Positions 31,733 to 32,691 of a stretch of 64,000 nt of DNA are shown here, in pieces. The notes under the pieces were generated by a model that was given only the letters and a program-made list of their open reading frames with translations, ran no database searches and was not told where the DNA came from. The position numbers and the translations under genes are program-made. Numbering within the stretch: the first letter of the stretch is position 1; each line of letters begins with the position of its first letter. Where the stretch lies: IMG/VR virus record IMGVR_UViG_3300006736_000004, positions 15,108-79,107 of that record; one strand, written 5' to 3'. Source of the DNA: a virus.

Positions 31733-31872
31733 CTCAATTTTTACGGTACTCTCTTCGAGTCTGGCTCACTCGATGCCTCCGGCACTCTCTCGTTGAACGG
31801 TTCGCTCAAGGCCTGCGGTTCTCTCGTTGACAATGGCTCACTCGTCGTAGACGGTTTTCTCAATTGCGATGG
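31733..31872 (-). ncRNA. TIGR array (tandem interspaced guide RNA): alternating 9-nt repeats and 9-nt spacers, four 36-nt units
   Basis: Minus strand from the tas stop codon: TAA CC atcgcaatt GAGAAAACC gtctacgac GAGTGAGCC attgtcaac GAGAGAACC gcaggcctt GAGCGAACC gttcaacga GAGAGTGCC ggaggcatc GAGTGAGCC agactcgaa GAGAGTACC gtaaaaatt GAG. Strict 18-nt period with two alternating repeat classes. Confidence 0.85.
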
Positions 31873-32691
31873 TTATATAGGCACCTCGATCTTATGTGCA
31901 TGATTAAGATGAGCAATCGGATATGGCAACGGTGGCGACTTACCATAATGTAATTTGTAAGCAACCTCATGGTAATGTGCTAGGAAAAGTTTAACTGCAT
32001 ATCTTTCAGCGCGTAATTCAATCCTACCATCAGGCAATCGGCCCTTGATATAAGCCTTGTACGCTTCAGTTGTTTTGCTGAACTTCTTTTCCTTGAGAGT
32101 TCTCTCAGCGGTATCTGCAAAGTCTCCAGCAAGATTCTTGCTTACCTCTTGGGCTTTCCGTTCAGCATAGATATGACCATAGAAGCAATTTTCGTTATTG
32201 TGGAATTTCATAAAGCTCTGTCCAATATTCCAACACAGAGTTTTAAGTCGGGCGTTCCAAGGGCGTTTTTGCCCTTTTTCCCATTTAGCTGTTGGGTCCA
32301 GACCAGCGAATGACCAGATATTGCCAACTGTCGGTGCTTTGGTAATGTCAATGTGAGCAAGAAGGCCAGCAGCAATGACTTCACCGACACCAATCTGTGA
32401 TCTGGCCCACTGTCCCAATGGATCTGCGTTGGAATAATAATTGAGTGCCGCTTTAATCTGGTTCTCCATAGTTCGTGCTTGGTCAGCTAACCAGTGAAGA
32501 ACAATGCAGGGTTCTTCCGTTTCACTCATTGACCCAATCTGGTTATTACACCGGATGCGGTTGTCTTGCATCATATAATAGGCATCGACTAGAAATCTAA
32601 CCTCTGTAGTGGTCATCTCACCACCACCAGATGCTTTCCGAAGATCACGACTTAATCGTTGAACAGGCTCTAACTGAGTCATTATATCCAT
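31873..32691 (-). CDS. tasA: TasA-like Nop-domain RNA-guided DNA-binding protein (IS110 / box C/D related, no nuclease domain)
   Basis: Coiled coil (LVDAYYMMQDNRIRCNNQI), then GVGEVIAAGLLAHIDI and IWSFAGLDP as in the IS110 Transposase_20/Nop region, WNARLKTLCW and RAERYAVKLFLAH. No RuvC/DEDD or HNH domain; adjacent TIGR array. Confidence 0.85.
   Translation of the reverse strand: MDIMTQLEPVQRLSRDLRKASGGGEMTTTEVRFLVDAYYMMQDNRIRCNNQIGSMSETEEPCIVLHWLADQARTMENQIKAALNYYSNADPLGQWARSQIGVGEVIAAGLLAHIDITKAPTVGNIWSFAGLDPTAKWEKGQKRPWNARLKTLCWNIGQSFMKFHNNENCFYGHIYAERKAQEVSKNLAGDFADTAERTLKEKKFSKTTEAYKAYIKGRLPDGRIELRAERYAVKLFLAHYHEVAYKLHYGKSPPLPYPIAHLNHAHKIEVPI

Follow-up and report, generated by a model that had tools for sequence, protein, structure and literature searches.

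A probable dual-repeat TIGR-TasA system in the genome of a marine tailed phage

A 272-aa gene and the 153 nt of repeats that follow it make up what is very probably (about 0.9) a dual-repeat TIGR-TasA system of a marine tailed phage, a compact locus that recurs in marine metagenomes. The DNA analyzed here (the window) is a stretch of 64,000 nucleotides, bases 15108 to 79107 of a 79,107-bp IMG/VR virus record (IMGVR_UViG_3300006736_000004). An earlier note made from the letters of the window had read the locus in the same way, and every element of that reading that could be tested held. The gene, its fold, its conserved residues, the architecture of the array, the covariation within it, and the co-occurrence of gene and array in relatives were all observed. 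The locus belongs to the already published TIGR-Tas family, for which 20,096 tas loci and 6,685 arrays have been catalogued (10.64898/2026.09.09.750476). The small size, the alternating edges, the overlaps with the stop codon and with a convergent terminator, and the marine recurrence are specific to this locus. Its features are collected in Table 1.

[quoted passage not shown] Seven GAG....CC repeats lie exactly 18 nt apart on the minus strand (31861, 31843, 31825, 31807, 31789, 31771, and 31753), and an additional GAGC is found in the same register at 31735. The window contains 117 GAGNNNNCC words on both strands; the chance expectation of seven such words in an 18-nt register is ~7e-17, and this is the sole such run in the window. 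No two of the eight 9-nt spacers are alike. The repeats alternate between two classes, the odd ones of GAGA type and the even ones of GAGYGARCC type, and every full repeat starts with GAG and ends with CC followed by a purine, that is, with box D-like and box C-like ends. The earlier claims of a strict 18-nt array starting at the stop of the 272-aa gene, with eight unique spacers, two alternating repeat classes, and four units, were all borne out; the first edge overlaps the TAA of the gene (31875-31873). The location proposed for the array was also right, although its start at 31733 was not: this coordinate clips the truncated last edge, and the array ends at ~31727 to 31731.

In dual-repeat arrays, edge and loop repeats of 8 to 12 nt alternate and are separated by spacers of ~9 nt, both repeats have a box D at the start and a box C at the end, and processing in the middle of the edges releases 36-nt tigRNAs (Faure et al., PMC12045711). 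TIGR arrays open with a 5'-truncated edge, and a terminator comes after their 3'-truncated last edge (PMC12045711). The position of processing within the edges was taken from the same work (PMC12045711), and the predicted ends of tigRNA 1 carry an uncertainty of ~±2 nt. At the 3' end of the array, the truncated last edge is followed by a hairpin whose T-run is on the opposite strand, and no U-run follows this hairpin on the array strand. Tandem Repeats Finder (score 30) reported nothing at the array because the units are too unlike each other, which is not evidence against the array. No Rfam family matched, and none of the listed runs that contain the locus was an RNA record.

CRISPR arrays have a single repeat of ~25 to 36 nt, spacers of similar size, and cas genes. 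A CRISPR array was rejected here: the repeats are of 9 to 10 nt and of two kinds, the spacers are of 8 to 9 nt, and there is no conserved partner gene.

Table 1. Features of the predicted TIGR-TasA locus, in window coordinates
Feature	Coordinates	Strand	Description
tasA	31873..32691	-	272-aa Tas protein, predicted to be nuclease-free, with coiled-coil hairpin and Nop domain
Shine-Dalgarno AAGGAG of tasA	32704-32699	-	7 nt upstream of the start
Y257 / H264 codons	31923-31921 / 31902-31900	-	C-terminal loop; putative guide-processing dyad
TIGR array	31727..31879	-	17 blocks of 9 nt, from the stop codon: E0 A1 L1 B1 E1 ... A4 L4 B4 E4
Edge E0	31879-31871	-	TATATAACC; 5'-truncated, ends with AACC; the TAA within it is the tasA stop
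Edge E1	31843-31835	-	GAGTGAGCC
Edge E2	31807-31799	-	GAGCGAACC
Edge E3	31771-31763	-	GAGTGAGCC
Edge E4	31735-31727	-	3'-truncated; GAGC kept, then unrelated bases
Loop L1	31861-31853	-	GAGAAAACC
Loop L2	31825-31817	-	GAGAGAACC
Loop L3	31789-31781	-	GAGAGTGCC
Loop L4	31753-31745	-	GAGAGTACC
Predicted tigRNA 1	31839..31874	-	Spacers ATCGCAATT / GTCTACGAC; closing pair A6(E0)-U3(E1)
Predicted tigRNA 2	31803..31838	-	Spacers ATTGTCAAC / GCAGGCCTT; closing pair G6(E1)-C3(E2)
Predicted tigRNA 3	31767..31802	-	Spacers GTTCAACGA / GGAGGCATC; closing pair A6(E2)-U3(E3)
Predicted tigRNA 4	31731..31766	-	Spacers AGACTCGAA / GTAAAAATT; closing pair G6(E3)-C3(E4)
Terminator-like hairpin and T-run	31718..31743	+	Of the convergent operon; shares bases with spacer B4 and the truncated last edge

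The search for relatives of TasA returned 4,106 database proteins (E ≤ 1e-3), the closest of them ~60% identical and 262 to 290 aa long, whereas a tblastn search of ~50,000 deposited phage records gave four distant matches and no others. Arrays of the same type were present within 3 kb in 61 of 80 viral homologous loci; 2,331 repeats shared the strand of tas, and 0 were on the other. Among cellular loci, 20 of 33 had same-type arrays on the tas strand; these were drawn from bacterial and archaeal contigs representing one genome per species, where just 33 loci were found, in many phyla. The array of the window follows the same grammar as 2,338 repeats in these relatives, and its repeats are less uniform than those of most of them. 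The family logo is dominated by A1 (1.8 to 2.0 bits), G2 (1.5 to 1.6), C7 (1.5 to 1.8), and C8 (1.9), and spacer positions +10 to +17 carry ~0 bits. The base following CC (+9) in 1,892 half-units of relatives is a purine (A, then G) with 0.6 to 0.7 bit, so the unit can be read either as 10-nt repeats and 8-nt spacers, as in SpTIGR, or as repeats and spacers of 9 nt each.

The period of 18 nt equals six codons, and a TTG-start ORF of 40 aa (31741-31863, minus strand) with a recurring S-E-P covers most of the array, which would make the repeat one of a translated six-residue peptide. We consider this extremely improbable. The array spacing of relatives slips to 17, 19, or 20 nt in 263 of 2,155 intervals, which would break any reading frame, spacer positions of every codon phase carry almost no information, and the covariation described below is of the RNA-pairing kind.

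This covariation concerns a closing base pair that forms across the unit, between unlike neighboring edges, and is a new observation. In all four units of the window, base 6 of the upstream edge pairs in Watson-Crick fashion with base 3 of the downstream edge. The edges alternate between a T3/G6 type and a C3/A6 type, giving a super-period of 72 nt, and pairing within the same edge would produce G-U or C-A, such that Watson-Crick pairs are obtained solely across the unit. The 113 homologous loci yielded 653 distinct units, of which 622 had a Watson-Crick pair between the edges, 25 had G-U, and 6 had a mismatch. When the flanking edges were unlike (120 units), the inter-edge combination was Watson-Crick in 106 and the same-edge combination in 14. 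These results support selection acting on the processed 36-nt unit and identify the even repeats as the edges. They also fix the register of the unit from sequence alone, which could be useful to the field. An additional edge pair, supported by covariation, has been described in TasR arrays (Faure et al., PMC12045711). The same alternation of T3/G6 and C3/A6 edges was seen in a Halomonas relative and in an alphaproteobacterial one.

The protein encoded upstream is, judging from its sequence and its predicted structure, a Tas protein lacking a nuclease. The AlphaFold2 model, built on 51 homologues (pLDDT 87.9, pTM 0.85), consists of helices alone from residue 9 onward, which form first a long hairpin and then a globular domain. 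The 10 best Foldseek matches were all TasH or TasR chains (E from 4e-8 to 8e-7, probability 1.00, TM 0.53 to 0.68), indicating in the model a Nop domain and a coiled-coil dimerization hairpin. The sequence search of solved structures agrees, with TasH of Salicola phage CGphi29 (E = 1.2e-11) and TaTasR (9mty; 2e-11) at the top. Neither HNH nor RuvC was found by Pfam, and the open frame around tasA has just 276 codons, so that no such domain could be attached to the protein. The coiled coil, the Nop-type domain, the absence of RuvC/DEDD or HNH, and the protein motifs quoted in the earlier note (found at residues 101-115 and 126-133) could all be recognized.

The sub-threshold match to Transposase_20 (E = 0.0019), the only one given by Pfam, the strong match to PHROG 4285 (E = 2e-49), a family labeled "transposase," and the name of transposase given to the Halomonas homologue would fit a remnant of an IS110-family transposase lying beside an unrelated tandem repeat and having no RNA-guided function. 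This is very unlikely. IS621 and ISCro4 are much weaker matches than TasH and TasR, both in sequence (E = 0.08 for IS621) and in fold (2e-3 to 1e-2 for both). The hallmarks of IS110, an N-terminal DEDD RuvC-like domain and a catalytic serine in the Tnp domain, were not found in TasA: the frame is too short for the former, and the SGSS of IS621 aligns with KGQK, leaving no serine at the catalytic position in what is a weak alignment, as had been anticipated from the missing SG motif. The relatives carry co-oriented arrays in most loci and are not IS110 elements. IS110/IS621 recombinases and archaeal box C/D Nop5 do share with TasA a Nop-type RNA-binding domain and coiled-coil dimerization. Unlike the former, TasA has no DEDD domain, catalytic serine, or bridge RNA, and the fibrillarin and L7Ae partners and the K-turn of the latter are absent from the locus. 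Its assignment as a TasA corrects the "transposase" label of public families.

Two pairs of residues point to specific functions. The SpTasH sequence used for alignment was taken from the phage record, and its aromatic-basic pair W203 and K211, reported to stabilize the heteroduplex and pry the DNA open (PMC13421893), aligns with W154 and K162 of TasA, kept in 51/51 and 50/51 homologues. Y289 and H296 of SpTasH, which have a catalytic role in cutting the guide precursor (PMC13421893), align with Y257 and H264 with the same seven-residue spacing; H264 is conserved in 51/51 homologues and Y257 in 46/51, the others having F. By equivalence to SpTasH, W154/K162 would unwind DNA and Y257/H264 would cut the guide precursor. 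The Y/H dyad is a mark of dual-repeat systems and is missing from stem-loop systems (Xu et al., 10.64898/2026.09.09.750476), and the protein thus agrees with the type of its own array.

The closest known system, by both sequence and fold, is SpTIGR-TasH of Salicola phage CGphi29 (PDB 9w03, 9w04, and 21kl; PMC12045711, PMC13421893). Both loci are phage-borne, with the array directly after the gene, both proteins have the Y/H processing dyad and the W/K unwinding pair, and the 18-nt half-unit is common to both arrays, whose repeats are nearly alike (edge AAGCGAGCCA and loop AAGACAACCA in SpTIGR, as read from the phage record, and GAGYGARCC(R) and GAGAnnnCC(R) here). In contrast, SpTasH is a DNA-cutting protein with an HNH nuclease at its N terminus, whereas the TasA of the window has no nuclease and is ~26% identical to it; SpTIGR also has an invariant A after CC, with 10-nt repeats and 8-nt spacers, where we find A or G. 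The FpTIGR system of Flavonifractor plautii (PMC12045711), compared by its description, is Nop-only and dual-repeat with 36-nt units, as here, but is found in a gut bacterium rather than in a marine phage with four units. TaTIGR-TasR (PDB 9mty) and ParTasR have the same Nop and coiled-coil dimer fold, box D/box C anchors, and target geometry, and the covarying extra closing edge pair reported for TasR arrays is also found here. They differ by a RuvC nuclease and by UG/CCA boxes, and TaTasR has a W at the position of Y257.

The tasA gene begins 15 nt past the preceding gene and closes a leftward block in which early genes, one of them of exonuclease type, are found. The last genes of the rightward block that converges on it are an endolysin, a lipase-like ORF, and two small ORFs. 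We found no conserved partner gene: the neighboring ORFs of the window recur in at most 10 of the 113 homologous loci, suggesting that the module consists of tasA and the array alone.

Contigs of marine metagenomes from at least eight studies contain half or more of the locus. Those of three runs from three studies match the window over 680 to 1,130 bases except at two positions, both in the array. One changes position 5 of spacer A3 from A to U (31794), and the other changes the third base of edge E2, from GAG to GAA (31805), GAA being frequent in relatives. The two form a single variant haplotype, so that faster change of the array than of the gene is only a hint.

Relaxed constraint could also account for two substitutions in the array, and the locus might then be a decaying or silent one, in which the gene and the array derive from a working system and the four units are a remnant without functional guides. 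Relatives have up to ~17 units or more, the loop repeats here differ from each other at one to three positions, and the array ends in a truncated edge, preceded by a spacer (B4) that also serves as the complement of the T-run of the plus-strand terminator. We nevertheless judge decay to be unlikely. The tasA gene is intact, and identical in the contigs of three other studies, with all functional residues kept. The eight box D/box C ends are intact and the four closing pairs are Watson-Crick in spite of two alternating edge types, features that would not be maintained under decay. Moreover, the GAA variant of the edge is common in the arrays of relatives, and minimal arrays of one to three units were processed in published tests (PMC12045711).

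For a functional TIGR-TasA system, we propose a mechanism by analogy with characterized relatives, from which expression, processing, DNA binding, and repression at this locus are inferred. Transcription would run from tasA, at the end of the leftward early/recombination operon, straight into the array. TasA would dimerize via its coiled coil and bind every edge and loop repeat at its two ends, the box D-like (A)G and the box C-like CC(R). The Y257/H264 loop would cut the precursor inside the edges to give four 36-nt tigRNAs, in each of which a single Watson-Crick pair would join the two edge halves. The DNA site bound by each ribonucleoprotein would measure 16 to 18 bp and consist of spacer A and the reverse complement of spacer B, with one spacer pairing to each DNA strand and with no flanking motif needed. 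Lacking a nuclease, the complex would act by blocking transcription and not by cleavage. FpTasA binds 36-nt RNAs (PMC12045711), and TasA is an RNA-guided transcription repressor (10.64898/2026.09.09.750476). Nuclease-free RNA-guided repression, the function proposed here, has been reported for MbTasA, CsTasR, and PlTasA (10.64898/2026.09.09.750476, 10.64898/2026.08.11.744272). These experiments used other TasA proteins, partly of stem-loop type, or dead TasR, whereas the present locus is of the dual-repeat type with the dyad. The likeliest natural targets would be genes of the marine host or other mobile elements within it. The earlier note had proposed programmable DNA-binding complexes, perhaps to silence host or competitor-phage loci, a function that would match the one since shown for TasA proteins (10.64898/2026.09.09.750476).

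The geometry of the target follows from the published 8-nt 3' overhangs, which indicate that the 3' half of each strand is the part paired with its spacer, hence a target composed of spacer A and the reverse complement of spacer B. In the 79-kb record, no self-targeting site with three or fewer mismatches was found for the four guides in either geometry. Exact 18-mers of guides 1 to 4 had 0, 0, 0, and 1 matches in IMG/VR, and guide 2 had 19 in JGI metagenomes, in ~13 unrelated contexts, which is the level expected by chance. The 16-mer cores of guides 1 to 3 matched 14, 11, and 5 times in IMG/VR, in unrelated coding genes (such as an ORF of unknown family beside a terminase large-subunit gene, a radical-SAM gene, and a T7-like tail protein), and no second guide matched the same contexts beyond chance. 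Nor did ~455 pairs of spacers from tigRNAs of relatives, searched against the pooled loci and this genome, give an excess over shuffled spacer partners, and four guides of the Halomonas sp. NO4 relative had no exact match in its own genome. Hence, no convincing target of the four guides emerged beyond chance from their own contig or from public collections. The target predicted for guide 2 (encoded at 31816-31834, in tigRNA 2) contains, on the other strand, TTGACA, which is the -35 consensus of sigma-70; the chance-level metagenome matches of this guide showed no promoter-like surroundings.

A candidate natural target was found for a relative. Acidobacteriaceae bacterium KBS 96 (KB906767.1, 133516-139295) carries a tasA 56% identical to that of the window and an array of six units, both within a full prophage that also encodes an integrase, TerL, portal, protease, and major head protein. 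Searching the six 16-mer cores in its 6.7-Mb genome gave an exact match of unit 2 (16/16) at 6,329,962-6,329,977, extending to 17/18 with the outer bases, and a match of unit 5 (15/18, with 14 contiguous central bases) 910 bp from it. An exact 16-mer is expected by chance 0.003 times per guide, and a second match with three or fewer mismatches within 1 kb ~0.007 times. The other four guides, backwards-pattern controls, and the alternative geometry gave nothing comparable in the genome. Both matches lie in a second, compact integrated element (6,324,000-6,332,100) encoding an integrase, a cI-like HTH_3 protein, an HTH_17 excisionase or regulator (phrog_66; AlpA-like), TerS, head, and protease, with no recognized tail genes. 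Its head and protease genes share PHROG families with those of the tasA prophage, and the match of unit 2 corresponds to codons 9 to 14 of the HTH_17 gene. From these sequence matches, the element is a candidate target to which only the geometry of spacer A plus the reverse complement of spacer B fits. This single case fits the silencing of a rival or parasitic element. That phages and prophages use this clade of TasA to silence co-resident rival integrated elements (satellites or prophages), and that the guides of the window aim at a mobile element of the marine host that is yet to be sampled, is possible, if on balance doubtful. If true, the KBS 96 relative would provide natural targets of a TIGR-TasA array, of which the TIGR-Tas papers cited here report none. 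It offers a concrete, testable isolate case on what nuclease-free TIGR systems target in nature.

The 79-kb record, though rated complete, may be chimeric or have been joined from two phages. A direct repeat (17822-18135 and 63687-64000; 32929-33242 and 78794-79107 in the genome) with exact blocks of 41, 55, and 81 bp has its copies 45,865 bp apart, the second reaching the end of the contig, and the GC content is ~55% over the first 30 kb of the record and 45 to 50% after. Together, the distance between the copies and the shift in GC suggest that the phage carrying tasA is probably a unit of ~45.9 kb. A megablast of 4 kb against cultured phages gave no match. Concerning its host, no tRNA genes were found; the hints are the marine habitat and the nearest cultured TerL, that of Sinorhizobium phage phiM5 (46% identity), a weak alphaproteobacterial signal. 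Finally, the lipase-like ORF at the end of the late operon (30612-31277, plus strand; 221 aa) resembles class-3 lipases, has a GHSLGG motif, and directly follows the endolysin-like gene (30210-30611).
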